Made by a program: the position numbers and the translations under genes. 12,583 nt of DNA from a virus (lineage: Duplodnaviria; Heunggongvirae; Uroviricota; Caudoviricetes): IMG/VR virus record IMGVR_UViG_2562617113_000016. One strand, given 5' to 3'. The notes below the pieces were generated by a model. That model searched no databases, was not told where the DNA came from, and worked only from the letters and a program-made list of their open reading frames with translations. Positions 1 through 12,583 of this stretch are shown here, in pieces; positions within the stretch are counted from its first letter, which is position 1; every line of letters starts with the position of its first letter.

Positions 1-1371
1 TCAGGCTGTCGCAGGGTCGTCACATTTTGGCAGCCAGTCGCCGTAGCTTTCCTCTTTCAGCGTCAGGTTGGTCTGTATCCCCTGTTTGGTATGGCGCTTC
101 TCGTAATTCAGTCCGTATTCCTTCAGCATCACCGGCAGCCCCAGCCCGAACATTTTCAGACTGAGTACATTCCGGTAGCCGTTTGCCTCCATGTAGGCCA
201 GATAGGCGTGATAGAGGTATTTACGGTAATTACGCGGGATGATACTGGCGTTCCCCATATACATGCCGCTGGTCTGCGGCAGGGTTTCCAGATAGCCGAT
301 AAAATCAAACGTCGGGTCGGCATCCCGTTTGATGTTCAGTGCCTCGTCTGAGTTCTGCTGGGACTGAAGCAGTGACCGGGCGAGCATCGGGTCGCTGAAC
401 TTCTGCATCAGGTGACGCACGATGACCGCCAGCTCGCGGGTGATTTTGTCCTTAAGCTGCGGGTCGCGCTCCTGCGGGGCTATCTGTTCCGGGAAGTGAA
501 TAATCACCCGCCGGCGTGACACGCCGCCGCTGCGGTCGGTGAAGCGCATCGGGTTATTGTTCACGGCCAGAATCACCGCCGGGATATGCGTGGAGTACGC
601 ATCCCGGTATTTCGGGTCCACGGACACCGCATCGCCGCCGGTGATGGCCTTGAGTCCGGCACCGTCGCCGCTCCATTTTTCCTGGTCCGGCAGGCGTATC
701 AGTGAGAAGCCAGTTAACGCGGCACGTTCACGCGGGGATTCCAGCGTCTCAATGGTGGCCGACGTGGCGTTATCCTCCCCGGCCAGCAGGGTGGCTATTT
801 CGGCCATGATACTTTTGCCGCTGCCGCCGGGACCGGTCACCTCCAGAAAGAGCTGCCAGTCGTAGCGGTTTGCCAGCACCATAAACAGTGCGGCCAGAAT
901 CACGTCGCGTTTTTCCGCACGGCCACCGGCGGCACGGTCAAGCCAGCGCCAGAACGCGGGGGCGTGGGTCTCCAGCGTTTCACCGTCCACCGGCGGGGTG
1001 AAATCCACATCGCACAGGGTGCGCATCCAGTGTAACGGACTGTGCGGGTGGAACGTGCCGTTCTGCGTGTCGAGCACGCCGTTACGAAAGCCAATCAGGC
1101 GGCGGGAGGGGGCTTCCTGCTGTGGAATAATCAGCTTCAGGGTGTCCACCACGGAGGCCACCTTCCCGGAGGAGAACGGCGCGCGCAGACGCTGAAACAG
1201 CCCGGCCACATCCCGGGCAAAGTCCTGTGGCGGCAGCACCTTCCAGACACCATTTTCATAGCGGGACAGAAGCTGGCCGTTGGCATCGACCGCGAGCGCC
1301 TCACCGTAATGCTCATAGATACGCATGGCCTTTTCGCTGGTACTCATGGCGGAAAACTCTGCTTCGCTCAT
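1..1371 (-). CDS. alpha: P4-type alpha protein, C-terminal helicase/origin-binding portion (ORF downstream of the frameshift)
   Basis: 456-aa ORF; translation matches the C-terminal two thirds of P4 alpha as I recall it, including a P-loop-like GPGGSGKS. Stop codon at 1-3. Open frame continues upstream of the ATG to about 1536. Confidence 0.85.
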   Translation of the reverse strand: MSEAEFSAMSTSEKAMRIYEHYGEALAVDANGQLLSRYENGVWKVLPPQDFARDVAGLFQRLRAPFSSGKVASVVDTLKLIIPQQEAPSRRLIGFRNGVLDTQNGTFHPHSPLHWMRTLCDVDFTPPVDGETLETHAPAFWRWLDRAAGGRAEKRDVILAALFMVLANRYDWQLFLEVTGPGGSGKSIMAEIATLLAGEDNATSATIETLESPRERAALTGFSLIRLPDQEKWSGDGAGLKAITGGDAVSVDPKYRDAYSTHIPAVILAVNNNPMRFTDRSGGVSRRRVIIHFPEQIAPQERDPQLKDKITRELAVIVRHLMQKFSDPMLARSLLQSQQNSDEALNIKRDADPTFDFIGYLETLPQTSGMYMGNASIIPRNYRKYLYHAYLAYMEANGYRNVLSLKMFGLGLPVMLKEYGLNYEKRHTKQGIQTNLTLKEESYGDWLPKCDDPATA

Positions 1372-2333
1372 GGTGTCGAACGGGCTTTCAGCCGGTGGCC
1401 GGATGGCATCGTAAATGGCCTTACGGGTGGCCTCCCCGCCGTACTGCGTGAAGGCATCATTCCAGTCACCGAAGACCGGCGGCAGGGCAACAACGCCCTC
1501 ACACGCATCTGCGGCTGCGGCAGCTTTTTCTGGCCGTCACCGCTGAGGTCACGGTCTGCGGCAAGGACAATCTGACAGGCCGGATGCTTCTGCCGGGCAA
1601 GGCTGGCCAGAGAAAGGAGGTTCACGGAAGAAAGCGCCACCATCACCGTTTCACCGGTCAGGTGATGCACGGTAAGTGCGGTCGCGTATCCCTCCGCTAT
1701 CCACAGACGTTTTCCGGCCTGATTCTGTCCTTCAAGGGTGTGACAGGTGCCCCTGACCTGTCCGCCTTTCAGGGTGCGCTTACGGCCGTCAGCACTGATT
1801 AACTGAAGGTTAACCAGTTCGCCGCTGTCGTCATACAGTGGCACCACAAGGTCACCGGCACGCCAGCTCACGCCACCGGCTCTGTGTGTGCCGGTCAGCA
1901 TCCGGCATTCCCGGCCGGGAAAGCCCTTGCGGGTCAGGTAGGCGTTACCGGTTCCGGGACGGGTTTTCGCCATCAGGGTTTGTGCCAGTGCGGCGGCGTT
2001 CTTCCGGGCAGCGTCTGTTTCAGCAACGGCGGCAGCCGTCACTGCCGGGTCAGCCGGTGGCAGGCTGCCGGTCACGGCAGCCACCTTTGCGGCCGCGTCG
2101 GACGGGGAAACACCAAACACCTTTTCAACCAGTTTCAGGCCGTCACCGGCACCACACTGATTGCAGTACCAGGTGCCGCGCCCCTCCCTGTCATCAAAAC
2201 GGAAGCGGTCACTCCCGCCACAGACCGGACAGGGCTGATGACGGTTTTTCAGCACCTGAATCCCCAGCGCCGGGAGAATACGCGGCCAGTGGCCGAGTGC
2301 ATGGCTGACGGTGGCGGTTACGTTCATTTTCAT
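1368..2333 (-). CDS. alpha: P4-type alpha protein, N-terminal primase portion (zinc-binding CxxC...CxxC plus primase core); last ~51 codons are out of frame
   Basis: 321-aa ORF starting MKMNVTATVSHALGHW with CPVCGG...CNQCG zinc motif. Good RBS (AGGAG) about 9 nt upstream of the ATG at 2331-2333. The tail after GDGQKK looks like frameshifted read-through ending at TGA overlapping the ATG of the downstream ORF. Confidence 0.85.
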   Translation of the reverse strand: MKMNVTATVSHALGHWPRILPALGIQVLKNRHQPCPVCGGSDRFRFDDREGRGTWYCNQCGAGDGLKLVEKVFGVSPSDAAAKVAAVTGSLPPADPAVTAAAVAETDAARKNAAALAQTLMAKTRPGTGNAYLTRKGFPGRECRMLTGTHRAGGVSWRAGDLVVPLYDDSGELVNLQLISADGRKRTLKGGQVRGTCHTLEGQNQAGKRLWIAEGYATALTVHHLTGETVMVALSSVNLLSLASLARQKHPACQIVLAADRDLSGDGQKKLPQPQMRVRALLPCRRSSVTGMMPSRSTAGRPPVRPFTMPSGHRLKARSTP

Positions 2334-2347
2334 GGTGTTGTTCTCCT

Positions 2348-2668
2348 TCAGTGCAGTACCGGCGCTTTTATGTGACGGGCACAGAGTTCATCCATCACAA
2401 CCAGCCCGAGAAAGGACAGCGACGGCGCGGCCTTCAGGGGGCCGGATTCCATTAAATCTTCCAGCAGGGCACAGGCTATCTGACGCCCTTTTTCCTCACC
2501 GTGCTGGCGCAGATAAAAGCCTTCCAGCTCAGCGGCGATGGCCGCCTCCAGTGACTCAAGGGTGAGATGCGGGTAGCGGTGCTGACGTTCGCACACGGTC
2601 AGCCAGGCACAGGCGACAGCGCGACGGTAAAGGGCAGCGCGTAAGACGGGCGGTAAGGGTGTTTTCAT
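2348..2668 (-). CDS. hypothetical protein, P4 left-operon orf106-like
   Basis: 106-aa ORF directly upstream of alpha; GGAGG RBS 7 nt upstream of the ATG at 2666-2668; same strand and tight spacing as the alpha operon. Confidence 0.6.
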
Positions 2669-2803
2669 TTGCTTTCCTCCCTGTGACAGATGACTGCATT
2701 CCGTGCCGGTTGCATTAACTGATAAGGCATATCTGCGTCTCCTGAAGACGTGCGTATCCCTGCGCGAATACGCACATTTAATTTTTCGGGTGTCGTTTTT
2801 TAA

Positions 2804-3259
2804 TTACAGATAATTGCGGTAACTGTTATCCGGGGTGGTTTCCGGGTCAGGCTCCGTGCGGGGAATTTCCCGCCATTCCCGCGCTACCGGTGCTGCCCGG
2901 CTGACCGGAACAGTGTCCTGCGGGTAAATATCCAGATATTTCTCCCGCCATTTCTGTAATTCCGGGTCTCCGGCCATTTCTTTCAGTACCGCATGCCGGT
3001 TTACGGGGCTGCGTTTAAACAGGTCAGGACGGTCACAGGTAAATTCCCGCAGAAAACGCCCCAGCGGGATGTCTGTGGTGCGCCCGTCGGCGAGGATACG
3101 CACAAGGATACTGAATTTACGGCGGTACGGATTCCAGACAATGTCCGGGCAGCGGTACGGCATTTCCCACGGAATACCGTCTTCCAGAATGCCGACCACG
3201 GCCACATCGGGAAAACCGGCAGAACGGTAAATCTCACCGGGCTGGGGAAAATCAAACAT
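2804..3259 (-). CDS. hypothetical protein, P4 left-operon orf151-like
   Basis: 151-aa ORF; start overlaps the stop of the upstream ORF by 8 nt (translational coupling). Confidence 0.6.
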   Translation of the reverse strand: MFDFPQPGEIYRSAGFPDVAVVGILEDGIPWEMPYRCPDIVWNPYRRKFSILVRILADGRTTDIPLGRFLREFTCDRPDLFKRSPVNRHAVLKEMAGDPELQKWREKYLDIYPQDTVPVSRAAPVAREWREIPRTEPDPETTPDNSYRNYL

Positions 3260-3539
3260 GCGTCCTGTCTCCCCGGTCTTTCTGCTGGGCGAGAAAATCG
3301 CGGCACAGGCCTTTGGCTTTCAGCTCATTCAGCACAAAATCAATATCTTCATTCAGGTAGCTGAAAATATGCGGAATGTAGAGCTGATGCAGGCCGGAGA
3401 GTTCACGGTGAATCAAATCACCCCCAACAAACTGGGATACGGCGCTGGCGCGGTTGAGCTTATGGTAAGCCTCAATGCTGAGGTGTTCACGGGCGTCATG
3501 ACGCGCTGAGACGGTCTGAGGGGCTTTTTTATTACGCAT
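3252..3539 (-). CDS. small 95-aa protein, candidate P4 epsilon-like (helper derepression) protein
   Basis: Internal ATG at 3537-3539 of the longer track ORF 3252..3779, preceded by a strong SD (GGAGGTG, about 5 nt spacing). The upstream 80 codons of the track ORF look non-protein-like. Size and position match epsilon in P4; identity by recall only. Confidence 0.45.
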
Positions 3540-3729
3540 GAGACACCTCCACCACCGGCAGACGGGCAGCAAGGGAGAGCACATAGTCACGGACAAGGGA
3601 ACGGCGGGCGCTGCGTTCATCACCGGCGACGGTGCGAAGCATACAGATACGGGGATGACGGTCTGCGCGACGGACAGCCGCAAACACAAAGACAAATTCA
3701 GGGTGTGAGGGGGTAAGGGTCGTAGCCAT
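3532..3729 (-). CDS. small 65-aa protein, first gene after the immunity leader (kil-like position)
   Basis: ATG at 3727-3729 with strong SD GGAGGT and 6-nt spacer; lies in the frame of track ORF 3532..4167, whose N-terminal region I interpret as leader. Alternative starts at 3906 or 3936 have poor RBS. Confidence 0.4.
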
Positions 3730-3739
3730 AAGGCAACCT

Positions 3740-4046
3740 CCGATAACAGCGTAAATGACGCTATCGCCGGAGTTCTCACGCTCGATGGCGATAGCCCAGA
3801 CGGGGGTGAGAATACCGGCGTTATCGGAAACCGGCCAGCCCGGAGGCTGCCCCGCCTGAGCTACCATTGACTCAGTGGCATAACATGCGATTGCGAACAG
3901 GATCATACCTGCACGGCAAACCACACGCCACACCATAATCTGGTGCTCTGTGGCGTTGATTGCGACACAAAAAAAGACGCATGGCGCGTCATATGTCGCC
4001 GATAACATACTCGGGTTCTCACGCCCGGCTGCCGATTTTGCGGCAG
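3740..4046 (-). ncRNA. candidate P4-type immunity leader (cI-RNA-like region with seqA/seqB/seqC-like complementary elements)
   Basis: Direct repeats GCGTGAGAAC (4015-4024 and 3772-3781, minus strand) and GTTATCGG (3999-4006 and 3740-3747), with a segment between them (3804-3827) complementary to both. The downstream copy overlaps the SD of the 65-aa ORF. Hairpin plus T7 run at 3969-3990. Confidence 0.35.
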
Positions 4047-4083
4047 CGGAAAAACTATATCCGCAAATGCCGGAAAAAGGCAA
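4047..4083 (-). promoter_or_regulatory. candidate sigma70 promoter (PLE-like) for the left operon
   Basis: Minus strand TTGCCT (4078-4083), 18-bp spacer, TATAGT (4054-4059), immediately downstream of the vis-like gene. Confidence 0.4.
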
Positions 4084-4118
4084 GCCAGAAAAAGGGAGTT
4101 TTTGCAGAGCGGGCATCA

Positions 4119-4385
4119 TCATGCGTCGTACCCCCGTTTGCGTCCGGCAATGCGTCCGGCCATCCATGCGGTGACTTCAGAGTGCAGCCAGGCCACATTT
4201 TTACCGCCAAGACTCACCTGCGGCGGAAATTCCCCCTTACGGATGAGTTCATAGATGGTCGAGCGTGACAGGCCGCACAGGTGCATCACTTCCGGCAGAC
4301 GTAAAAAACGCTCCTGCGTGATGTCCGGCAGCGGCATCAGTGGCGTCACAGGGGCGGGAGACGGGGAAGAAAAAACAGCTTGCAT
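4119..4385 (-). CDS. AlpA/Vis-family HTH DNA-binding protein (P4 orf88/vis-like regulator or excisionase)
   Basis: 88-aa ORF with the AlpA-family signature RLPEV...[17 protein letters not shown]...W..SEV; GAGGT RBS about 8 nt upstream of the ATG. Confidence 0.75.
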
Positions 4386-4439
4386 CGGGCTACCTCGTTA
4401 ATGTCCATACAGCACCGGATAAGTCCGTCCGGCTTCGGG

Positions 4440-4505
4440 TAGCGCTTTATTTTGTGAATATTTTTGGCAGACGCAACAGGGGGGATTTGTTCCGGCAGCC
4501 TTACA
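4440..4505 (-). promoter_or_regulatory. candidate Delta/Ogr-activated late promoter (PLL-like) driving the vis-like gene
   Basis: TGT-N12-ACA dyad at 4488-4505 (TGTtccggcagccttACA); a start about 55 bp downstream on the minus strand would fall near 4441. Confidence 0.45.
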
Positions 4506-4530
4506 ATGACTGTGTGTTTTTTGTTCATTC

Positions 4531-4560
4531 CCACTTAAAGTCATTTAAAGCCACTTAAAG
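4531..4560. repeat. three tandem 10-bp repeats (C/T)CA(C/T)TTAAAG
   Basis: CCACTTAAAG TCATTTAAAG CCACTTAAAG, helically phased, between the PLL-like dyad and the iteron cluster. Confidence 0.6.
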
Positions 4561-4664
4561 CAATTCGTAATTTTTATAGTGAAATACAAATCGTTTCTTC
4601 TTATTCATTCACAGCGAATTAATAAAAACAAACAGTAGTAAACAGCACAAAAAGTCCATGAGCG

Positions 4665-4768
4665 GGTGAACAGTGGTGAACAGACGGTGAACAGTCATTA
4701 CTGCGATTGTTCACCCTTTAACTTACTGTATTACTTATCTTTTTTTTATGGTGAACAGAGGTGAACAG
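4665..4768. repeat. iteron cluster of P4 type I (TGTTCACC / GGTGAACA) alpha-binding repeats; candidate ori
   Basis: GGTGAACAG at 4665-4673, 4675-4683, 4686-4694, 4750-4758 and 4760-4768, plus an inverted copy TGTTCACC at 4708-4715; 10-11 bp spacing; flanked by A-rich tracts. Confidence 0.6.
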
Positions 4769-4849
4769 TAAAATATAAAAAAAAACAAACAGTAAGCCGG
4801 TTTTTCCTGCGACCTTTTCCTGGCTTGCCGGTCTGAGGATGAGTCTCCT

Positions 4850-4915
4850 GTGTCAGGACTGGCACATCTGCAATGCGTCGTGTTGTTGTCCGGTGTACGT
4901 CACAATTTTCTTAAT
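4850..4915 (+). promoter_or_regulatory. candidate Delta/Ogr-activated late promoter (Psid-like)
   Basis: TGT-N12-ACA dyad at 4850-4867 (TGTgtcaggactggcACA), about 55 bp upstream of a plausible start near 4913; sid ATG at 4939. Confidence 0.5.
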
Positions 4916-4938
4916 CTGAAGTGACGAGGAGCCGGAAA

Positions 4939-5673
4939 ATGTCTGACAACACCATCCCTGAATATCTGCAACCCGCACTGGCACAACTGGAAAAGGCCAG
5001 AGCCGCCCATCTTGAGAACGCCCGACTGATGGATGAGACCGTCAAGGCCATTGAACGGGCAGAGCAGGAAAAAAATGCGCTGGCGCAGGCCGACGGAAAT
5101 GACGCTGATGACTGGCGCACAGCCTTTCGTGCAGCCGGTGGTGTCCTGAGCGACGAGCTGAAACAGCGCCACATTGAGCGCGTGGCACGCCGGGAGCTGG
5201 TACAGGAATATGACAATCTGGCCGTGGTGCTGAATTTTGAACGTGAACGCCTGAAAGGGGCGTGTGACAGCACGGCCACCGCCTACCGGAAGGCACATCA
5301 TCACCTGCTGAGTCTGTATGCAGAGCATGAGCTGGAACACGCCCTGAATGAAACCTGTGAGGCGCTTGTCCGGGCAATGCATCTGAGCATTCTGGTACAG
5401 GAAAATCCGCTCGCCAACACCACCGGCCATCAGGGCTACGTCGCACCGGAAAAGGCTGTCATGCAGCAGGTGAAATCATCGCTGGAACAGAAAATAAAAC
5501 AGATGCAAATCAGCCTCACCGGTGAGCCGGTTCTCCGGCTGACCGGACTGTCAGCGGCAACACTCCCGCACATGGATTATGAGGTGGCAGGCACACCGGC
5601 ACAGCGCAAGGTGTGGCAGGACAAAATAGACCAGCAGGGAGCAGAGCTTAAGGCCAGAGGACTGCTGTCATGA
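4939..5673 (+). CDS. sid: Sid, capsid size determination (external scaffold) protein
   Basis: 244 aa from ATG 4939 (MSDNTIPEYLQ...) with GAGGAG RBS. The track ORF starts at an upstream GTG (4921). Size and gene order sid-delta-psu match P4. Confidence 0.85.
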   Translation: MSDNTIPEYLQPALAQLEKARAAHLENARLMDETVKAIERAEQEKNALAQADGNDADDWRTAFRAAGGVLSDELKQRHIERVARRELVQEYDNLAVVLNFERERLKGACDSTATAYRKAHHHLLSLYAEHELEHALNETCEALVRAMHLSILVQENPLANTTGHQGYVAPEKAVMQQVKSSLEQKIKQMQISLTGEPVLRLTGLSAATLPHMDYEVAGTPAQRKVWQDKIDQQGAELKARGLLS

Positions 5674-6170
5674 TTTACTGCCCGTCGTGTGGACATGTTG
5701 CTCACACCCGTCGCGCACATTTCATGGACGATGGCACCAAGATAATGATTGCACAGTGCCGGAATATTTATTGCTCTGCGACATTTGAAGCGAGTGAAAG
5801 CTTTTTCTCTGACAGTAAAGATTCAGGAATGGAATACATTTCAGGCAAACAGAGATACCGCGATTCACTGACGTCAGCCTCCGGCAGTATGAAACGCCCG
5901 AAAAGAATGCTTGTTACCGGATATTGTTGTCGGAGATGTAAAGGCCTTGCACTGTCAAGAACATCGCGGCGTCTGTCTCAGGAAGTCACCGAGCGTTTTT
6001 ATGTGTGCACGGATCCGGGCTGTGGTCTGGTGTTTAAAACGCTTCAGACCATCAACCGTTTCATTGTCCGCCCGGTCACGCCGGACGAACTGGCAGAAAG
6101 CCTGCATGAAAAACAGGAACTGCCGCCAGTACGCTTAAAAACACAATCATATTCGCTGCGTCTGGAATGA
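5670..6170 (+). CDS. delta: Delta, Ogr-family zinc-finger late transcription activator (tandem Ogr-like domains)
   Basis: 166 aa; two Cys4 clusters (CPSCG...C..IYC and CCRRC...C.DPGC); ATGA overlap with the sid stop. Confidence 0.85.
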   Translation: MIYCPSCGHVAHTRRAHFMDDGTKIMIAQCRNIYCSATFEASESFFSDSKDSGMEYISGKQRYRDSLTSASGSMKRPKRMLVTGYCCRRCKGLALSRTSRRLSQEVTERFYVCTDPGCGLVFKTLQTINRFIVRPVTPDELAESLHEKQELPPVRLKTQSYSLRLE

Positions 6171-6243
6171 GGGCTGCCGGTTAACACCGGCCGTCGCCGC
6201 ACACCGTATTTTTATTCTTCAGCATGATGAGAAAGAGATAACG

Positions 6244-6816
6244 ATGGAAAGCACAGCCTTACAGCAGGCCTTTGACACCTGTCAGAATAACAAAGCAGCA
6301 TGGCTGCAACGCAAAAATGAGCTGGCAGCGGCCGAACAGGAATATCTGCGGCTTCTGTCAGGAGAAGGCAGAAACGTCAGTCGCCTGGACGAATTACGCA
6401 ATATTATCGAAGTCAGAAAATGGCAGGTGAATCAGGCCGCTGGTCGTTATATTCGTTCGCATGAAGTCGTTCAGCACATCAGCATCCGCGACCGGCTGAA
6501 TGATTTTATGCAGCAGCACGGCACAGCACTGGCGGCGGCACTGGCACCGGAGCTGATGGGCTACAGTGAGCTGACGGCCATTGCCCGAAACTGTGCCATA
6601 CAGCGTGCCACAGATGCCCTGCGTGAAGCCCTTCTGTCCTGGCTTGCGAAGGGTGAAAAAATTAATTATTCCGTACAGGATAGCGACATTTTAACGGCCA
6701 TCGGATTCAGGCCTGACGCGGCTTCGGTGGATGACAGCCGTGAAAAATTCACCCCTGCGCAGAACATGATTTTTTCGCGTAAAAGTGCGCAACTGGCATC
6801 ACGTCAGTCTGTGTAA
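6244..6816 (+). CDS. psu: Psu, polarity suppression / capsid decoration protein
   Basis: 190-aa ORF following delta; size and position as in P4. Confidence 0.85.
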   Translation: MESTALQQAFDTCQNNKAAWLQRKNELAAAEQEYLRLLSGEGRNVSRLDELRNIIEVRKWQVNQAAGRYIRSHEVVQHISIRDRLNDFMQQHGTALAAALAPELMGYSELTAIARNCAIQRATDALREALLSWLAKGEKINYSVQDSDILTAIGFRPDAASVDDSREKFTPAQNMIFSRKSAQLASRQSV

Positions 6817-6851
6817 AATTCCCCGAAAATCCGCCCGTTTTTACTGAAAAA

Positions 6852-6880
6852 AGCCATGCATCGATAAGGTGCATGGCTTT
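6852..6880 (+). terminator. candidate intrinsic terminator after psu
   Basis: 9-bp stem AGCCATGCA / TGCATGGCT with 9-nt loop, followed by TTTGCATGCGTTT. Confidence 0.45.
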
Positions 6881-6980
6881 GCATGCGTTTCCCTGCCTCA
6901 TTTTCTGCAAACCGCGCCATTCCCGGCGCGGTCTGAGCGTGTCAGTGCAACTGCATTAAAACCGCCCCGCAAAGCGGGCG

Positions 6981-6999
6981 GGCGAGGCGGGGAAAGCAC
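6981..6999. other. cos: P2/P4 cos site (19-nt cohesive-end sequence)
   Basis: GGCGAGGCGGGGAAAGCAC matches the P2/P4 cohesive-end sequence as I recall it; sits in a GC-rich dyad context just downstream of psu, as in P4. Confidence 0.75.
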
Positions 7000-7170
7000 T
7001 GCGCGCTTACTTAGATGCGTGAATTTATTTATATCACTGAAGTATATCCCTAAGCTCATTTCTCAAAGGGCCTATGGTTGCACAAGGTTGTACCATGGCA
7101 TTCAAAACTTTTTAAACCAAGAATGACAATTTCATTATTAGGCCGGAATAGTTACTAATTTTAGTATAGG

Positions 7171-7199
7171 TTGCGATTGTTTAACGCATTTTTTATTAT
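7171..7199 (+). promoter_or_regulatory. candidate sigma70 promoter for the first cargo gene
   Basis: TTGCGA (7171-7176), 17-bp spacer, TATTAT (7194-7199) in AT-rich DNA upstream of the 434-aa ORF; several alternative hexamers exist nearby. Confidence 0.3.
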
Positions 7200-7241
7200 G
7201 ATGCAGATTTTATTATTACTAATGGGGTGCAAAAAACACGT

Positions 7242-8531
7242 ATGAAAAAAAATGTTGGTAACCGCAATAAAAATTCTGATGTGCTTATTCTTAAAGGTAT
7301 GTTGAACAATTTAAAAGATGGTTTAAATAATTTTGAATTATTGCTTAAATTGCAGTTTAAAATATTGGTGTGCGTGATGAGATGTGAGCGGAAAATTAAG
7401 TTTCTTAAAAAGAATAATGCTCATTTAAGGTCGGTGTTAAAAAAATCAAGACTTCCAAAAGAAAAATCTCTGGCAGTAAAAGAAAAAATTAAATACAATT
7501 CTGAAGTAATTACTGCTGAAAAATTCAAGATATATACGTATAAAATGTTTGGCGATGCTGTTGCATTTTTATACATCGATAAATATACAATTAAACAGTT
7601 ATACTACAATGTACATAATTACAATGTTAAAGAAACGTCGGGGGATTTGAGCGGTAAGTCTGGATTGCGAGAGGAATGGGAATGCGTAAAACTTGCATGT
7701 GATAATAAAGTTCCAGCTCTGTTGCATGATATTACAATGAGTATAAGGCATGGAGATGTATCACTTTTAGGTAAAGATGAGCCATTTATTATTGAGATGA
7801 AATCAAGCTCAAATACAAATAAGAGAGTTGAGCGGCAAAAATCTAACCTTGAAAAATTAGGAAGTTTCATAGCAAAAGACGAAGCTGAAAATTTTCGAGG
7901 GATTCCATTGTTAATCAGGAAAAATTTGTTAACTGAAGAGGAATCATATTCTCAGGTTTTAAATGAGTGTCTTAATGATTGTCGCAGCAAAGGAATGGCT
8001 TTGGTTGAAGCTGAAAAAGGATTTTATATCTGCGCAGTTAGAGAAGGGAATATGGCTTCTATGCTAGAAAATATAGATTTTGATGAAAAAAAAGAAGTTT
8101 TTCCTGTATTTCTCAATCAATATAAAAATAATGGGGAATGGCTACCATTAACACCATTTACACTATTAATTAACGATCCTTACGATCTCCATGATTTTAT
8201 CGAAGGGGAATTAACAATAGCTTGTTTTTTAATGCTCGATGAATACAAAAAAATTGCTATAGAACTAGGCTATGAATTAGTTTTTGTTTCAAATGATGAA
8301 TATAGTATCTTGTTAAAAAGAATTGGTGAAGATATTATATTTGGTGTTTCCTGGCAAATGTTGTTAAGAGTTCCATTAGAGATGATGTCCATGTCATGGT
8401 TGATAAAAGAAAGTATTAATATATATAGTAACTCCCTAGAAAATAGCACCCATAATGATGAATTAAATCAGGGGCAGGGAAATACTAAAAATTCATTATT
8501 CGAAAAATACAAGAATTTATTTTCTTACTAA
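7242..8531 (+). CDS. cargo protein A, unknown function, putative PD-(D/E)xK-fold nuclease
   Basis: 1.3-kb ORF in AT-rich DNA, where random ORFs of this length are improbable. First ATG at 7242; track start is GTG at 7227. Motif ...PALLHD(168)...FIIE(190)MK(192) fits the hhhD...hhhExK pattern. No strong RBS seen. Confidence 0.8.
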   Translation: MKKNVGNRNKNSDVLILKGMLNNLKDGLNNFELLLKLQFKILVCVMRCERKIKFLKKNNAHLRSVLKKSRLPKEKSLAVKEKIKYNSEVITAEKFKIYTYKMFGDAVAFLYIDKYTIKQLYYNVHNYNVKETSGDLSGKSGLREEWECVKLACDNKVPALLHDITMSIRHGDVSLLGKDEPFIIEMKSSSNTNKRVERQKSNLEKLGSFIAKDEAENFRGIPLLIRKNLLTEEESYSQVLNECLNDCRSKGMALVEAEKGFYICAVREGNMASMLENIDFDEKKEVFPVFLNQYKNNGEWLPLTPFTLLINDPYDLHDFIEGELTIACFLMLDEYKKIAIELGYELVFVSNDEYSILLKRIGEDIIFGVSWQMLLRVPLEMMSMSWLIKESINIYSNSLENSTHNDELNQGQGNTKNSLFEKYKNLFSY

Positions 8532-8563
8532 TTAAGCATTGTAATTATATTTGATTTTTTCTA

Positions 8564-8597
8564 CAGGCTTGGACGGAATCATATAGCTCCAAGCCTG
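8564..8597. terminator. hairpin between the convergent cargo genes (candidate terminator, mainly for gene A)
   Basis: Perfect 10-bp stem CAGGCTTGGA / TCCAAGCCTG with 14-nt loop; followed by TGTTGTGTC on the plus strand; a T-run precedes it. Confidence 0.5.
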
Positions 8598-8632
8598 TTG
8601 TGTCGGTATCAAAAAGAAAGTGATATTATTGT

Positions 8633-10006
8633 TTATCTAATATATTTTGTTACTTCCATATTATCTTCATCGTCAAAAGAGTACTCAACCATCATACGAC
8701 TATTTTTACCTGACTTAATATCTTGAAGCCAAGCTGAGGCAACCCTAGGGTCTAAATGCTGTTTTCTACTCAGCTCATTATTTTTTAGCCTATCAAGCCT
8801 TATTGCTCTTTGAAGAGTTTTATCGATGTAGTCTTCCAAATCAATGGACAACCTCCTTTTTGGATATAAATATTGGTATTCATCACACAATAGTACTCCT
8901 GGTAATTTAATTTCGCGTAGGTCGAAAGAATACCAACTATAGTTTTTAGACTCATTAGCTAATTCCGAAACTAGATGAGCCCCATTTTGTTGTAAGAGAG
9001 ATATTTTGTGATCGATGCTAATGTCAGATATTTCTCTTAAAGACTCAAAATGCATGTTTTCGTAGATAGTATTTAATAAAATACTCTCCATGTAAGAGTA
9101 AAAATCAGTACCATCGATGATAATATTAGTTTCATTGTAGACTGCAAGAGACATAAGATATATGAAGAAAACTGCGGGAGTACTATTACCTCTGTTTATA
9201 TCAAGTCTAAGGGAGTTGACATAATCAGGCGGAGAGTTTGAGAAAATTTCTCTTATTAACCAGTCTGGAATAGTGGTTCTTGTTAGAATGTCAGCGTTCA
9301 AACTTGAACGACATAAAAAAATACACATCTTTAATTTTAATTTTATTGAAAATGATGGGAATAAATGATCGATGAAAGATAAAATACATGTATACTCTGC
9401 TAAGTCTGTTTGTTGCAACTTTTCTTTTATTTCATTTTCAAGCATTTTTAATTTAAAAAAATCATTCCTTTTTTCTAATATTTCCCAATGAAATAATTGC
9501 TCCTGAGCGTACGCATGCCCCTCTAAAATAGCTAGCATGCTTAAAGGAATGTTTAGGATTTCTTGATAATTATTAACATACCCAAAGAAATGGACTCTGA
9601 TATACACACCCATATCGTCATCATATTGTAATGATGCTTTAATATTTTTATAATTTAATTTATTAGTGCTGTTGTTTTTGAAGTGATAATGTAAAGTAAT
9701 TTCAGTATCATCAACTAATAAATTATCAAAAGCCTCCTTTGTTTCATATTTAAAATAGTTATATAGCCGACATGAATAATTTAACCCCCAGTGAGTTGTA
9801 GAACAATCAAGTAAATGGATTGTTTCATGGAGATATGTTTTATAAAATTCAATTTCGCTATCATCAAAATCATATATGCTTTTACTGTCTATGATATTTT
9901 GTGCTTGCGGTAAACTTATATTTAATTCATCGTTTGAAATCTCAATTAAATGTGATGAAAAATCATAAGAACCCAATGTTTTGCTGTTAAATATACATCC
10001 GCTCAT
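8633..10006 (-). CDS. cargo protein B, unknown function, putative zincin-like metallopeptidase (HEXXH)
   Basis: 457-aa ORF in AT-rich DNA. HETIH at residues 60-64 (DNA 9815-9829) in the context YKTYLHETIHLLD. Start ATG overlaps the integrase stop (ATGA) with AGGGGA RBS 6 nt upstream. Confidence 0.8.
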   Translation of the reverse strand: MSGCIFNSKTLGSYDFSSHLIEISNDELNISLPQAQNIIDSKSIYDFDDSEIEFYKTYLHETIHLLDCSTTHWGLNYSCRLYNYFKYETKEAFDNLLVDDTEITLHYHFKNNSTNKLNYKNIKASLQYDDDMGVYIRVHFFGYVNNYQEILNIPLSMLAILEGHAYAQEQLFHWEILEKRNDFFKLKMLENEIKEKLQQTDLAEYTCILSFIDHLFPSFSIKLKLKMCIFLCRSSLNADILTRTTIPDWLIREIFSNSPPDYVNSLRLDINRGNSTPAVFFIYLMSLAVYNETNIIIDGTDFYSYMESILLNTIYENMHFESLREISDISIDHKISLLQQNGAHLVSELANESKNYSWYSFDLREIKLPGVLLCDEYQYLYPKRRLSIDLEDYIDKTLQRAIRLDRLKNNELSRKQHLDPRVASAWLQDIKSGKNSRMMVEYSFDDEDNMEVTKYIR

Positions 10007-10278
10007 AGCAAATCCCCTAAAAGATAATCAGAGTACCATTGAATCATCGTTTTCCTTTGAGAAAAATATTGTGCGTGATTATAGGTTCCTCGGATATTGT
10101 TCTTATCAACATGTGCTAATTGCATTTCAATCCAGGTACTATCAAATCCCTGTTCATGTAGGATTGTTGACATTGTATGTCTAAAACCGTGACCTGTAGC
10201 ACGTCCTTTGTAACCAAGTAACTCAATCACTTGTGAAACACTTTCTTTTGAAATTGGTTTGCTACGTAACCGGCTCAT
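10003..10278 (-). pseudogene. int: tyrosine recombinase (P4-type integrase), C-terminal remnant only
   Basis: 91-aa ORF with catalytic-domain signature GHGFRHT...LAHVDKNNIRGTYNHA (R-H-R-Y region). The upstream in-frame codon is a stop and no integrase-like sequence is found further upstream; IS DNA begins there. Confidence 0.8.
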
Positions 10279-10318
10279 TTAAACCGTCTGGTCTGTTTCC
10301 TCCGGCTCTACAAAAATA

Positions 10319-10996
10319 ATGTCCATCATTTTTAATGGACACTATCGTATGAAACACCGGACCTGGATCACTGAAGCTTTACGTCTTCACTTTGAAGAAC
10401 ATTTACCCCGGGTTGTGGCCGGGCGTCGCCTGGGTGTACCAAAATCAACAGTTTGTAGTATGTTCGTGCGCTTTCGGAGAGCTGGCCTTTCGTGGCCTTT
10501 GCCCGCAGGCATGTCGGAGCAGGAACTTGATGCCTGCCTTTACGGACAATTTTCCACGGTACCAGTCGTACGTCCTGAAAGCACCGTTATATCCGAAGCC
10601 CCCGTGGTAAAAAAACGTCCCCGGCGGCCCAACTTCCCTTATGAGTTTAAAATCGCCTTAGTGGAGCAGTCACTGCAGCCCGGAGCCTGTGTGGCGCAGA
10701 TCGCCCGGGAAAACGGAATCAACGATAACCTGCTCTTCAACTGGCGCCATCAATACCGGAAAGGTGGCCTGCTGCCTTCCGGAAAAAATATGCCGGCACT
10801 GCTTCCCGTGACGTTAACGCCGGAGCCGGATAATAAAATCCCGGCCCCCGCACAGGAACCAGAGCAGATAAATACACCGTCCGACAGTCTGTGTTGTGAG
10901 CTGGTTCTGCCGGCCGGAACTCTCAGGCTTAAAGGTAAACTGACGCCGGCGTTATTACAGACACTTATCCGCGAAATAAAAGGGAGCAGCCACTGA
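10319..10996 (+). CDS. tnpA: IS66-family TnpA (orf1) accessory protein with HTH; N-terminal extent uncertain
   Basis: 225-aa ORF. C-terminal part (KRPRRPNFPYEFKIALVEQSLQPGACVAQIARENGINDNLLFNWRHQYRKG) is a transposase HTH typical of IS66 orf1. N-terminal about 90 aa carries a second HTH (LRLHFEEHLPRVVAGRRLGVPKSTV...AGLSWPLP) that resembles IS21-family IstA N-termini from memory. Confidence 0.65.
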   Translation: MSIIFNGHYRMKHRTWITEALRLHFEEHLPRVVAGRRLGVPKSTVCSMFVRFRRAGLSWPLPAGMSEQELDACLYGQFSTVPVVRPESTVISEAPVVKKRPRRPNFPYEFKIALVEQSLQPGACVAQIARENGINDNLLFNWRHQYRKGGLLPSGKNMPALLPVTLTPEPDNKIPAPAQEPEQINTPSDSLCCELVLPAGTLRLKGKLTPALLQTLIREIKGSSH

Positions 10997-11343
10997 TGAT
11001 ATCTCTCCCTGCAGGTTCGCGTATCTGGCTGGTTGCAGGTATCACCGATATGCGAAATGGCTTTAACGGCCTGGCATCAAAAGTTCAGAACGTCCTGAAG
11101 GATGACCCGTTCTCCGGACACCTGTTCATCTTCCGCGGACGCCGGGGTGACCAGATAAAAGTGTTGTGGGCTGACAGTGACGGACTGTGCCTCTTCACCA
11201 AACGCCTGGAGCGGGGCCGCTTCGTCTGGCCAGTCACCCGTGACGGCAAGGTGCACCTTACTCCGGCTCAGTTATCCATGCTTCTTGAAGGTATCAACTG
11301 GAAGCACCCGAAACGAACGGAACGCGCTGGAATCCGCATATAA
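10996..11343 (+). CDS. tnpB: IS66-family TnpB (orf2)
   Basis: 115-aa ORF with ATGA overlap to tnpA; sequence (..GLCLFTKRLERGRFVWP..) matches IS66 Orf2-like proteins as recalled. Confidence 0.85.
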   Translation: MISLPAGSRIWLVAGITDMRNGFNGLASKVQNVLKDDPFSGHLFIFRGRRGDQIKVLWADSDGLCLFTKRLERGRFVWPVTRDGKVHLTPAQLSMLLEGINWKHPKRTERAGIRI

Positions 11344-11362
11344 CCCGTTGTAAAGTGAGGAT

Positions 11363-12583
11363 ATGGACACCTCACTTGCTCATGAGAACGCCCGCCTGCG
11401 GGCACTGTTGCAGACGCAACAGGACACCATCCGCCAGATGGCTGAATACAACCGCCTGCTCTCACAGCGGGTGGCGGCTTATGCTTCCGAAATCAACCGG
11501 CTGAAGGCGCTGGTTGCGAAACTGCAACGTATGCAGTTCGGTAAAAGCTCAGAAAAACTTCGTGCAAAAACCGAACGGCAGATACAGGAAGCACAGGAGC
11601 GAATCAGCGCACTTCAGGAAGAAATGGCGGAAACGCTGGGTGAGCAATATGACCCGGTACTGCCATCCGCCCTGCGCCAGTCTTCAGCCCGTAAACCGTT
11701 ACCGGCCTCACTTCCCCGTGAAACCCGGGTTATCCGGCCGGAAGAGGAATGCTGTCCTGCCTGTGGTGGTGAACTCAGTTCTCTGGGATGTGATGTGTCA
11801 GAGCAACTGGAGCTTATCAGCAGCGCCTTTAAGGTTATCGAAACACAACGTCCGAAACAGGCCTGTTGCCGGTGCGACCATATCGTGCAGGCACCAGTAC
11901 CTTCAAAACCCATTGCACGCAGTTATGCCGGAGCGGGGCTTCTGGCCCATGTTGTCACCGGGAAATATGCAGACCATCTGCCGTTATACCGCCAGTCAGA
12001 AATATACCGTCGTCAGGGAGTGGAGCTGAGCCGTGCCACACTGGGGCGCTGGACAGGTGCTGTTGCTGAACTGCTGGAGCCGCTGTATGACGTCCTGCGC
12101 CAGTATGTGCTGATGCCCGGTAAAGTCCATGCTGATGATATCCCCGTCCCGGTCCAGGAGCCGGGCAGCGGTAAAACCCGGACAGCCCGGCTGTGGGTCT
12201 ACGTCCGTGATGACCGTAACGCCGGTTCACAGATGCCCCCGGCGGTCTGGTTCGCGTACAGTCCGGACCGGAAAGGTATCCATCCACAAAATCACCTGGC
12301 CGGTTACAGCGGTGTGCTTCAGGCCGATGCTTACGGTGGTTACCGGGCGTTATACGAATCCGGCAGAATAACGGAAGCCGCGTGTATGGCTCATGCCCGG
12401 AGAAAAATCCACGATGTGCATGCAAGAGCGCCCACCTACATCACCACGGAAGCCCTGCAGCGTATCGGTGAACTGTATGCCATCGAGGCAGAGGTCCGGG
12501 GCTGTTCAGCAGAACAGCGTCTGGCGGCAAGAAAAGCCAGAGCCGCGCCACTGATGCAGTCACTGTATGACTGGATACAGCAA
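11363..12583 (+). CDS. tnpC: IS66-family transposase TnpC (orf3), 5' partial, runs off the window
   Basis: Translated by hand from ATG 11363: [29 protein letters not shown]..., with leucine-zipper-like N-terminus and CPACGG...CCRCDH zinc motif typical of IS66 transposases. Open to the window end, so absent from the ORF track. Confidence 0.85.

Follow-up and report, generated by a model that had tools for sequence, protein, structure and literature searches.

The int-B junction

The DNA analysed here is a 12,583-nt stretch of the IMG/VR virus record IMGVR_UViG_2562617113_000016 (Caudoviricetes), which we refer to as the window. Its gene content identifies it as a P4-like satellite prophage integrated at tRNA-Sec (selC). 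Between the cohesive-end site (cos) and the integrase gene (int) the satellite carries two convergent genes, A and B, and int itself is interrupted by an insertion sequence (IS) of the IS66 family. We focused on gene B, the start of which overlaps the stop codon of int (coordinates of all features are given in Table 1).

Read on the minus strand, the sequence over the junction is ...TTTTAGGGGATTTGCTATGAGCGG..., and that of the wider region from 9900 to 10400 is ...GATTATCTTTTAGGGGATTTGCTATGAGCGGATGT.... As the preliminary description of this DNA had stated, the int stop and the gene B start are fused in an ATGA, and a Shine-Dalgarno (SD)-like AGGGGA is embedded in the 3′ end of int. The duplex of AGGGGA with the 3′ end of 16S rRNA has a computed energy of -6.4 kcal/mol, within the best 6.5% of the 446 ATGs in the window (both strands). 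The start of gene B is well supported: no in-frame start lies farther upstream, and the four closest homologues, the most distant with 34% identity, all keep the first two residues, M1-S2. The two genes thus have the layout of a translationally coupled pair, namely the same strand, a stop/start overlap and an SD within the upstream gene. No structure hiding the SD was found, since the 100-nt fold around the site is no stabler than shuffled sequence (z = -0.39). There is consequently no sign that the SD is sequestered until int is translated, and coupling need not be obligatory.

Taken by itself, the 4-nt overlap of int and B is not beyond chance. The arrangement recurs, and int and B are joined alike in every P4-like element that carries B, comprising more than ten near-identical loci and one lineage that is ~25% diverged at the DNA level. 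In the diverged lineage (L013) the ATGA and the length of the int tail are kept and the SD-like sequence is AGGGAG; identity to the window is 73% for the B protein, 74% for A and 75% for the DNA over the whole cassette. An ATGA junction between int and cargo also recurs in another element (L021, 4966-4969), where the downstream gene encodes a 474-aa hypothetical protein. This protein was considered as a relative of B and rejected, having no similarity to it.

A cassette boundary inside the integrase frame

Comparison of the window with P4 and six other P4-like elements places the junction at the edge of a variable cassette. Backbone homology stops at 7005-7007 and resumes at 10018-10034, and the conserved part of int ends 15-31 nt before the int stop. 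Because the cassette edge lies inside the int frame, the cargo supplies the last int codons, the int stop, and the SD and start of B; the ATGA overlap exists because the cargo carries both the int stop and the B start. The int tails of six elements show the same boundary from the protein side. They are alike up to the motif WYSDxL(Y) and then differ, ending in YLLGDLL, NNALGSLL, FLYPGDL, RLYPKFNMEGSYAL, KLY or KLYPN, each followed by the stop codon. The C-terminal tail of int therefore varies with each cassette, indicating that the recombination boundary lies inside the int open reading frame (ORF). An ATGA overlap could arise passively in this way, since the int frame runs into AT-rich cargo until it meets its first stop.

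The spacing between int and the adjacent cargo gene differs widely among elements. The overlap is 4 nt with B (window and L013) and with the unrelated 474-aa gene, and 11 nt with the gene for a HEPN protein (L022, 4949-4959). Gaps of 12 bp separate int from a SIR2 protein gene (L023, 4976-4989), 19 bp from a helicase gene (L002, 18143-18163), 55 bp from a HAD hydrolase gene (L031) and 66 bp from cII in P4. In one further element (L029) the cargo next to int is in the opposite orientation. The int-B overlap is one end of a spacing spectrum, yet it is stable.

The cassette occupies the psu-int hotspot of anti-phage systems that Rousset et al. 2022 (PMC9122126) defined in P4-like satellites. As in that hotspot, the genes between cos/psu and int are variable and differ among otherwise similar satellites. 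Table S1B of the same paper lists exactly the A and B proteins as system 32, with 48 occurrences and without domains, and Table S1 gives the accessions WP_000742539 for gene A and WP_001406847 for gene B. Within PMC9122126, the A and B accessions and the B sequence are confined to the Table S1 file and absent from the tested systems and from Table S2; in PMC13586616 (de Sousa/Rocha 2026) there is no text match to A or B. The gap between A and B contains an inverted repeat at a position matching the annotated cII terminator of P4, with no clean U-tract on either strand.

Insertion of an IS66-family element in int

The preliminary description had also placed an IS66-family insertion at about 10265-10280, and the boundary can be set precisely between 10265 and 10266. 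Identity to ten intact Escherichia coli loci stops at 10266, from which point the sequence continues as an IS66-type end, GTAACCGGCTC.... Over the 2,318 bp inside the window, the IS is 100% identical to an annotated ISCro1-family copy in E. coli O103 RM8385 (L002). What remains of int on the B side keeps HGFRH and the catalytic-Tyr region GTYNHAQY, and in comparison with the 391-aa integrase its last 5-10 codons and stop are variable cassette. The catalytic set of a functional integrase, R...K...H-x-x-R...H/W...Y, is split after codon 304, so that the window holds HGFRH...GTYNHAQY only.

The far side of the insertion is visible in a second assembly (L008, GCA_001953095.1), found solely through an exact look-up of the B protein. 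Over the 12,583 bases of the window it differs by only two single-base gaps, both in the lengths of homopolymer runs, and it extends past the window. Its alignment with an intact locus reveals a simple 2,699-bp insertion with the ends GTAAGCGACTC... and ...GAGCCGGTTAC, flanked by the 8-bp duplication GTAGCAAA. The ends GTAAGCGACTC... and GTAACCGGCTC... are terminal inverted repeats of the GTAA type found in IS66 elements, and the near end and one copy of the duplication lie within the window. For a simple insertion, the far end in the source genome is expected to read ...CGAGTCGCTTAC followed by TTTGCTAC. On the far side of the IS in L008, int codons 1-304 and the int upstream region are intact, and the 5′ int ORF stops nine codons into the IS (...RSKVSDSSEPY). 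Contrary to the earlier proposal that the IS had removed the 5′ part of int, this alignment indicates that int is split at codon 304 and inactivated, not truncated by deletion.

The IS supplies an ATG that opens a chimeric ORF reading into the int tail. The only GGAGG upstream of this ATG is 20 nt away, too far to serve as an SD, and an exact look-up of the chimeric 91-aa protein returned no record. The IS-int junction has no match in complete E. coli RefSeq genomes or in a set of one genome per species.

Other insertions were noted in related satellites. The ISCro1-like copy of L002 (8772-11470) occupies a different site, between a DUF5375 gene and ORF151, and in other strains the same satellite is broken by an IS21 element (L007, 15539-17841). 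The selC P4-like satellites are repeated targets of IS elements.

Gene B belongs to a mobile family with an HExxH motif

Nothing meaningful was matched by B in Pfam (E up to 10), PADLOC, NCBIfam or PHROGs, and neither a sequence-profile search of the PDB nor a Foldseek search of the PDB with a structure model gave a match. Pfam searches with 59 members of the B family returned scattered single matches only. B itself is rare, with six clusters in the 90% database; a profile search retrieved 188 representatives at 50% identity, nearly all 430-470 aa long. Across 59 family sequences (17-73% identity to B), residues H60, E61, H64, D67, W73, G74, G133, E162 and Y205 are invariant. From this conservation, H60-E61-x-x-H64 is predicted to be an HExxH motif with a downstream Glu, as in gluzincins, and with E162 as putative third metal ligand the family presents the conserved motif of a zincin. 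An AlphaFold2 model built on the alignment of 59 sequences has a pLDDT of 91.5 and a pTM of 0.91; it replaced an earlier model from five sequences that was unusable (pLDDT 49.7).

A search for B loci with a five-sequence profile gave three loci. Distant homologues of B (31-35% identity) have no integrase upstream and no homologue of A, and they lie in several kinds of mobile context. In Vibrio parahaemolyticus (L014, 7831-9467) a 35%-identical homologue forms a single cassette bounded by attC-type repeats (TAACAAA...GTTA) in the chromosomal superintegron; the array there is rich in acetyltransferase and ParE/Phd cassettes, with a reverse-transcriptase gene nearby. In Idiomarina (L018, 6441-9462) a Tn7-like element is inserted in comM, and the homologue, accompanied by an unannotated 241-aa gene, lies between the truncated comM and tnsA; on a metagenome contig (L019) it is likewise beside a Tn7-like tnsA. 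A relationship to A of the 241-aa gene, which precedes B in the Tn7-like loci, was considered and rejected. In Photobacterium (L034, 4001-8787) the homologue immediately precedes tniQ and a Csy2-like cas gene, a neighbourhood suggestive of a CRISPR-associated transposon (CAST), and in Shewanella it is found in a small islet.

These contexts indicate that B is an autonomous accessory gene, not an integrase partner. The preliminary description had proposed comparing intact homologous elements, with separation of B from int, and a promoter of its own, as the outcome that would speak against an int-B operon. The comparison gives a divided answer: int and B are adjacent in all P4-like elements with B, but the distant homologues stand without an integrase. 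The standalone homologues go part of the way toward that outcome and mark B as an autonomous module; they are no proof of a separate promoter in the P4 context. B is most likely an anti-phage gene, a candidate single-gene defence protein, to judge by its location and mobility.

Gene A is probably a second, separate module

Gene A has no Pfam match. Residues D163, D172 and E185-x-K187 are invariant in 11 homologues, a predicted pattern like that of PD-(D/E)xK nucleases. Homologues of A with 50-52% identity occur in the gpA-portal hotspot of P2-like prophages (L026, 5001-8141; L027, 5001-6290), in both cases without B. One stands alone and the other is followed by an unrelated 456-aa protein. 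That protein, the neighbour of the Serratia A homologue, was examined as a possible homologue of B and rejected for lack of similarity. The presence of the A family in both P2 and P4 hotspots implies that this cargo family moves between the hotspots of helper phages and satellites.

In Pluralibacter gergoviae (L024/L025, 6390-6928) a degraded P4-like remnant contains a psu fragment and an intact A (91% identical), and only B residues 394-457 (the last 64) and the N-terminal part of int are left. A deletion apparently took most of B and the 3′ half of int. In another locus (L005) A is frameshifted and B is intact. A and B are most likely two independent single-gene modules, plausibly anti-phage to judge by where they travel.

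Expression of gene B

Sites resembling sigma-70 promoters were sought with a consensus threshold of 9/12. On the B strand, no site of at least 9/12 lies between the B start and 10500, and no intrinsic terminator was found near the int-B junction at the scan threshold. In the intact locus, no site of at least 9/12 was found upstream of B in the last 800 bp of int, and the sole + strand site inside int lies upstream of the insertion point. The 4-nt overlap leaves no room for a promoter between int and B. A relaxed scan picked out a perfect -10-like TATAAT at the codons of the int catalytic Tyr, with a -35-like TTGATA at 20-nt spacing; the hexamer at 17 nt matches 3/6. This is the only candidate for a cryptic promoter left upstream of B. 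A TAYAAT is present in 6/6 int alleles examined, which says little because the amino acids T-Y-N are themselves conserved.

The explanation that we favour, at a probability of about 0.6, has four parts: the int-B junction is the edge of a cassette, B is carried on the int transcript, the IS splits int and exerts polarity on B, and B is an autonomous accessory gene. In an intact element B would most likely lie at the far end of the int transcript, and ribosomes would start at its own SD, whether they load anew or re-initiate once int has been terminated. Insertion of an IS in a gene upstream of another gene is a classic setting for Rho-dependent polarity. Here the IS puts 2.7 kb of antisense sequence between B and the int upstream region, the presumed site of the promoter, and any read-through RNA would be untranslated for ~2.9 kb of antisense IS and remnant and so be open to Rho-dependent termination. 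In the strain that carries the IS, expression of B is probably weak or absent, unless a weak promoter is present in the 263-bp int remnant.

Part of the expression scheme in the preliminary description can be retained with changes. An int-B operon is favoured by the co-directional and overlapping genes, the SD of B, the lack of a consensus promoter between the IS and B, and the preservation of the junction, and from these we infer the co-transcription that the scheme proposed. The silencing of B by the IS is a reasonable expectation from IS polarity, with the correction that the presumed promoter region is displaced, not removed. Read-through from the IS into B, which was offered as another possibility, is unlikely, as tnpA, tnpB and tnpC are on the + strand and point away from B.

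Alternative explanations

Several points weigh against the favoured explanation. Co-transcription and polarity are presumed from sequence, and the defence role of B from its location and mobility; the far IS junction is visible only in L008, as the window ends inside the IS. The TATAAT is in the int remnant that the insertion spared and could drive B independently of the IS. The P4 promoter Pint is described as repressed by Int and Vis in the account of Piazzolla 2006 given in PMC7286903. In a lysogen, Pint alone would then give a defence gene little expression, a point in favour of another promoter. In the HAD-hydrolase system and in P4, 55-66 bp separate int from the next gene, which may be served by a promoter of its own, so operon expression is not universal at the int-proximal site. 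We consider it rather unlikely, in spite of these points, that the conserved 3′ part of int contains a promoter for B, such as the TATAAT at the catalytic-Tyr codons. Were that so, an IS 180 bp farther upstream would not alter the expression of B, and the overlap with int would have no bearing on transcription. The hexamer precedes the B start by 72 nt and is itself preceded, at 20 nt, by TTGATA; TAYAAT occurs in all six int alleles, and the auto-repression of Pint means that a constitutive defence gene would need another promoter. The clones of int-codirectional systems made by Rousset et al. also start exactly at the GTYNHAQY codons, and the hydrolase+3TM system was active 'from the native promoter' in those clones (PMC9122126). 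However, the 20-nt spacer exceeds the common range of 16-18, only 3/6 positions match in the hexamer at 17 nt, and conservation of T-Y-N dictates the -10-like sequence. Nor does the activity of the hydrolase system prove a promoter inside int, because that system includes an intergenic region of 55 bp, and PARIS-1, when cloned from that same motif, showed no activity unless driven by Ptet (PMC9122126). A different alternative deals with translation only and is compatible with the favoured explanation: the overlap may be a passive by-product of cassette exchange with no translational role, B initiating purely from its own SD. We put this just short of an even chance. The ATGA and the SD sit in cargo DNA, the int tails end 0-11 codons past the conserved WYSDxL(Y), as expected for the first stop in AT-rich DNA, the SD of B is reasonably strong and not sequestered, and spacings from +12 to +66 bp suffice for other cargo genes. 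Against it, tail length and ATGA are unchanged through ~25% DNA divergence in L013, and the same ATGA arose with unrelated cargo, both of which are compatible with mild selection for coupling.

The other two alternatives question the anatomy and the independence of B. That the IS junction is an assembly artefact, or that the 5′ part of int is truly deleted in the source genome, seems very improbable. The window ends within the IS with the far junction out of view, and the junction occurs in no complete E. coli RefSeq or species-representative genome, but L008, an independent assembly, matches the window exactly at the near junction and in the IS, and its far junction shows a clean 8-bp duplication. 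It is also unlikely, if less so, that A and B form one convergently transcribed defence system to which the link between B and int is secondary. The same arrangement is kept in two lineages ~25% diverged in DNA, the pair counts as one 'system' in Table S1B of Rousset et al. (PMC9122126), and a nuclease-like A (D...ExK) with a protease-like B (HExxH) would make a plausible sensor/effector pair. This pairing is at odds with the A homologues that occupy P2 gpA-portal hotspots without B, with Pluralibacter, where A is intact and B is reduced to residues 394-457, with the frameshifted A beside an intact B in L005, and with the B homologues in integron-cassette, Tn7-like and Shewanella contexts without A.

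Satellite backbone

The left part of the window (1-6980) has 97.9% nucleotide identity to phage satellite P4 (NC_001609), and the core genes of a P4-like satellite, namely psu, delta, sid, alpA/vis, the epsilon/ash region, the alpha primase gene and int, are present in P4 order. The same element with an intact 391-aa int is found next to tRNA-Sec in 10 complete E. coli genomes, and an exact look-up of the B protein gave more loci; E. coli 07-4299 (CP027462) is one strain with an intact int. A distance of 160 bp separates int from the tRNA-Sec gene beyond it, both in the intact loci and in L008, in a region outside the window.

Two further differences from related sequences were observed. The alpha primase-helicase gene (1-2333, minus strand) is frameshifted by an indel at ~1525-1530, where the window has a run of T5 and L008 has T6. 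Agreement with the intact 777-aa alpha extends over the first 270 residues, after which the frame changes and the gene falls into ORFs 1368-2333 and 1-1371; in 8/8 related loci compared, alignment to the window requires indels. Either the homopolymer was misread in sequencing, or the decaying satellite has acquired a second inactivating lesion. At ~4777, in non-coding, low-GC sequence between the leftward and rightward P4 operons, a single-base homopolymer difference separates the window from L008 (A9 vs A8).

Table 1. Features of the window discussed in the text, ordered by position.
Feature	Position	Strand	Description
sid	4921-5673	+	P4 backbone identity
delta	5670-6170	+	Pfam Ogr_Delta (6.9e-22)
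psu	6244-6816	+	Pfam Psu (2e-88); left conserved neighbour of the hotspot
cos	6981-6999	+	P2/P4-type cohesive end GGCGAGGCGGGGAAAGCAC; downstream of psu; the linear P4 record ends at window 6980
Variable hotspot cassette	~7007-10020		~30% GC; between cos and the int 3′ end
Gene A	7242-8531	+	429 aa; convergent with B; phrog_14906 (unknown function)
Inverted repeat	8563-8598		Perfect 11-bp repeat, 14-nt loop; in the 101-bp gap between convergent A and B; -20.2 kcal/mol, z = -3.67
Gene B	8633-10006	-	457 aa; unannotated family; hotspot cargo
ATGA overlap	10003-10006	-	int stop TGA (10005-10003) and gene B start ATG (10006-10004), with TG in common
int 3′ remnant	10003-10265	-	P4-type tyrosine integrase; last 86 codons and stop; Pfam Phage_integrase (2.1e-10; C-terminal catalytic part, 10003-10278)
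SD-like AGGGGA	10018-10013	-	6 nt before the gene B ATG, within the last int codons
-10-like TATAAT	10083-10078	-	Thr-Tyr-Asn codons at the int catalytic Tyr; 72 nt upstream of the B start (relaxed scan)
Target-site duplication copy	10258-10265		TTTGCTAC on the + strand, GTAGCAAA in the int sense
ISCro1-like IS66-family element	10266-12583	+	First 2,318 of 2,699 bp inside the window
IS-supplied ATG	10276-10278	-	Start of the chimeric 91-aa ORF 10278-10003 (MSRL + int tail)
tnpA	10319-10996	+	Pfam HTH_Tnp_1 (8.6e-15)
tnpB	10996-11343	+	Pfam TnpB_IS66 (IS66 Orf2; 4.7e-40)
tnpC	~11363 to beyond window end	+	DDE_Tnp_IS66 domains present in L008

Implications

The ATGA junction is routine, and its value is as a clean example of a P4 cassette that ends within the integrase frame. 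Three aspects are modestly new: (i) the cassette boundary lies inside the int frame; (ii) tight int-cargo junctions recur with unrelated cargo; (iii) B belongs to an uncharacterised HExxH family common to satellites, integron cassettes and Tn7-like elements. Cargo at int often has no room for a promoter of its own. If such cargo depends on int transcription, hotspot systems cloned "with native promoter" may lack the control that they are really under, and IS insertions in int, a common event in decaying satellites, would silently disable host defences. With a high-confidence model, an invariant HExxH and three kinds of mobile element, B is a tractable candidate for a new single-gene defence family.

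A more far-reaching joint reading, which we regard as quite improbable as a whole, would make the int 3′ end a platform on which promoterless defence cassettes dock and from which they are expressed. For many hotspot genes (those at -11, -4, +12 and +19 bp) the tail of the int transcript would be the sole route to expression, and an IS in int would switch the neighbouring defence gene off. The satellite's own anti-Rho protein Psu, made upon helper-phage activation, could relieve such polarity and render B helper-inducible, and B may found a new single-gene, zincin-like anti-phage family across satellites, integron cassettes and Tn7-like transposons.

Comparison with known systems

A 4-nt ATGA overlap is the commonest overlap class between co-directional genes of bacterial operons. 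The int-B junction is like such overlaps in that the genes share a strand and the SD is in the upstream gene. It differs in that int and B are functionally unrelated and the overlap falls at a recombination boundary. The downstream partner of int also changes between related elements, and any coupling at this junction is putative. The IS corresponds to IS66/ISCro1 in its tnpA/tnpB/tnpC order, GTAA... ends, 8-bp target duplication and length of 2,699 bp. Compared with known polar IS insertions, the IS genes here are antisense to the interrupted operon, and polarity on B is a presumed effect.

The predicted metal site of B recalls zincin metallopeptidases such as DPP III (M49), from which B is set apart by the absence of a match in Pfam, NCBIfam, PADLOC, PDB sequences or Foldseek; a protease activity of B is hypothetical. 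The Lit protease of prophage e14 can be named beside B by analogy only. Integron gene cassettes share with the P4 hotspot the organization of promoterless single-gene modules beside a tyrosine-recombinase gene. The P4 hotspot differs in having no attC or attI and no evidence of cassette exchange catalysed by int, and its cargo lies downstream of int and is co-directional with it, not divergent, so that this is a resemblance only.

The closest counterparts are P4 itself and the psu-int hotspot. P4 has the same layout, with psu, cos and gop-beta running rightward to meet cII and int running leftward, although its cII is 66 bp from int whereas B overlaps int by 4 nt. The hotspot of Rousset et al. 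2022 (PMC9122126) and de Sousa/Rocha 2026 (PMC13586616) has the same position between cos/psu and int, the same low-GC exchangeable cargo and the pair already catalogued, the difference being that the A/B cargo is without a recognised defence domain. The anatomy of the locus is thus entirely of known kinds: a P4-like satellite, a psu-int hotspot with a catalogued pair, an IS66/ISCro1 insertion and a 4-nt overlap.

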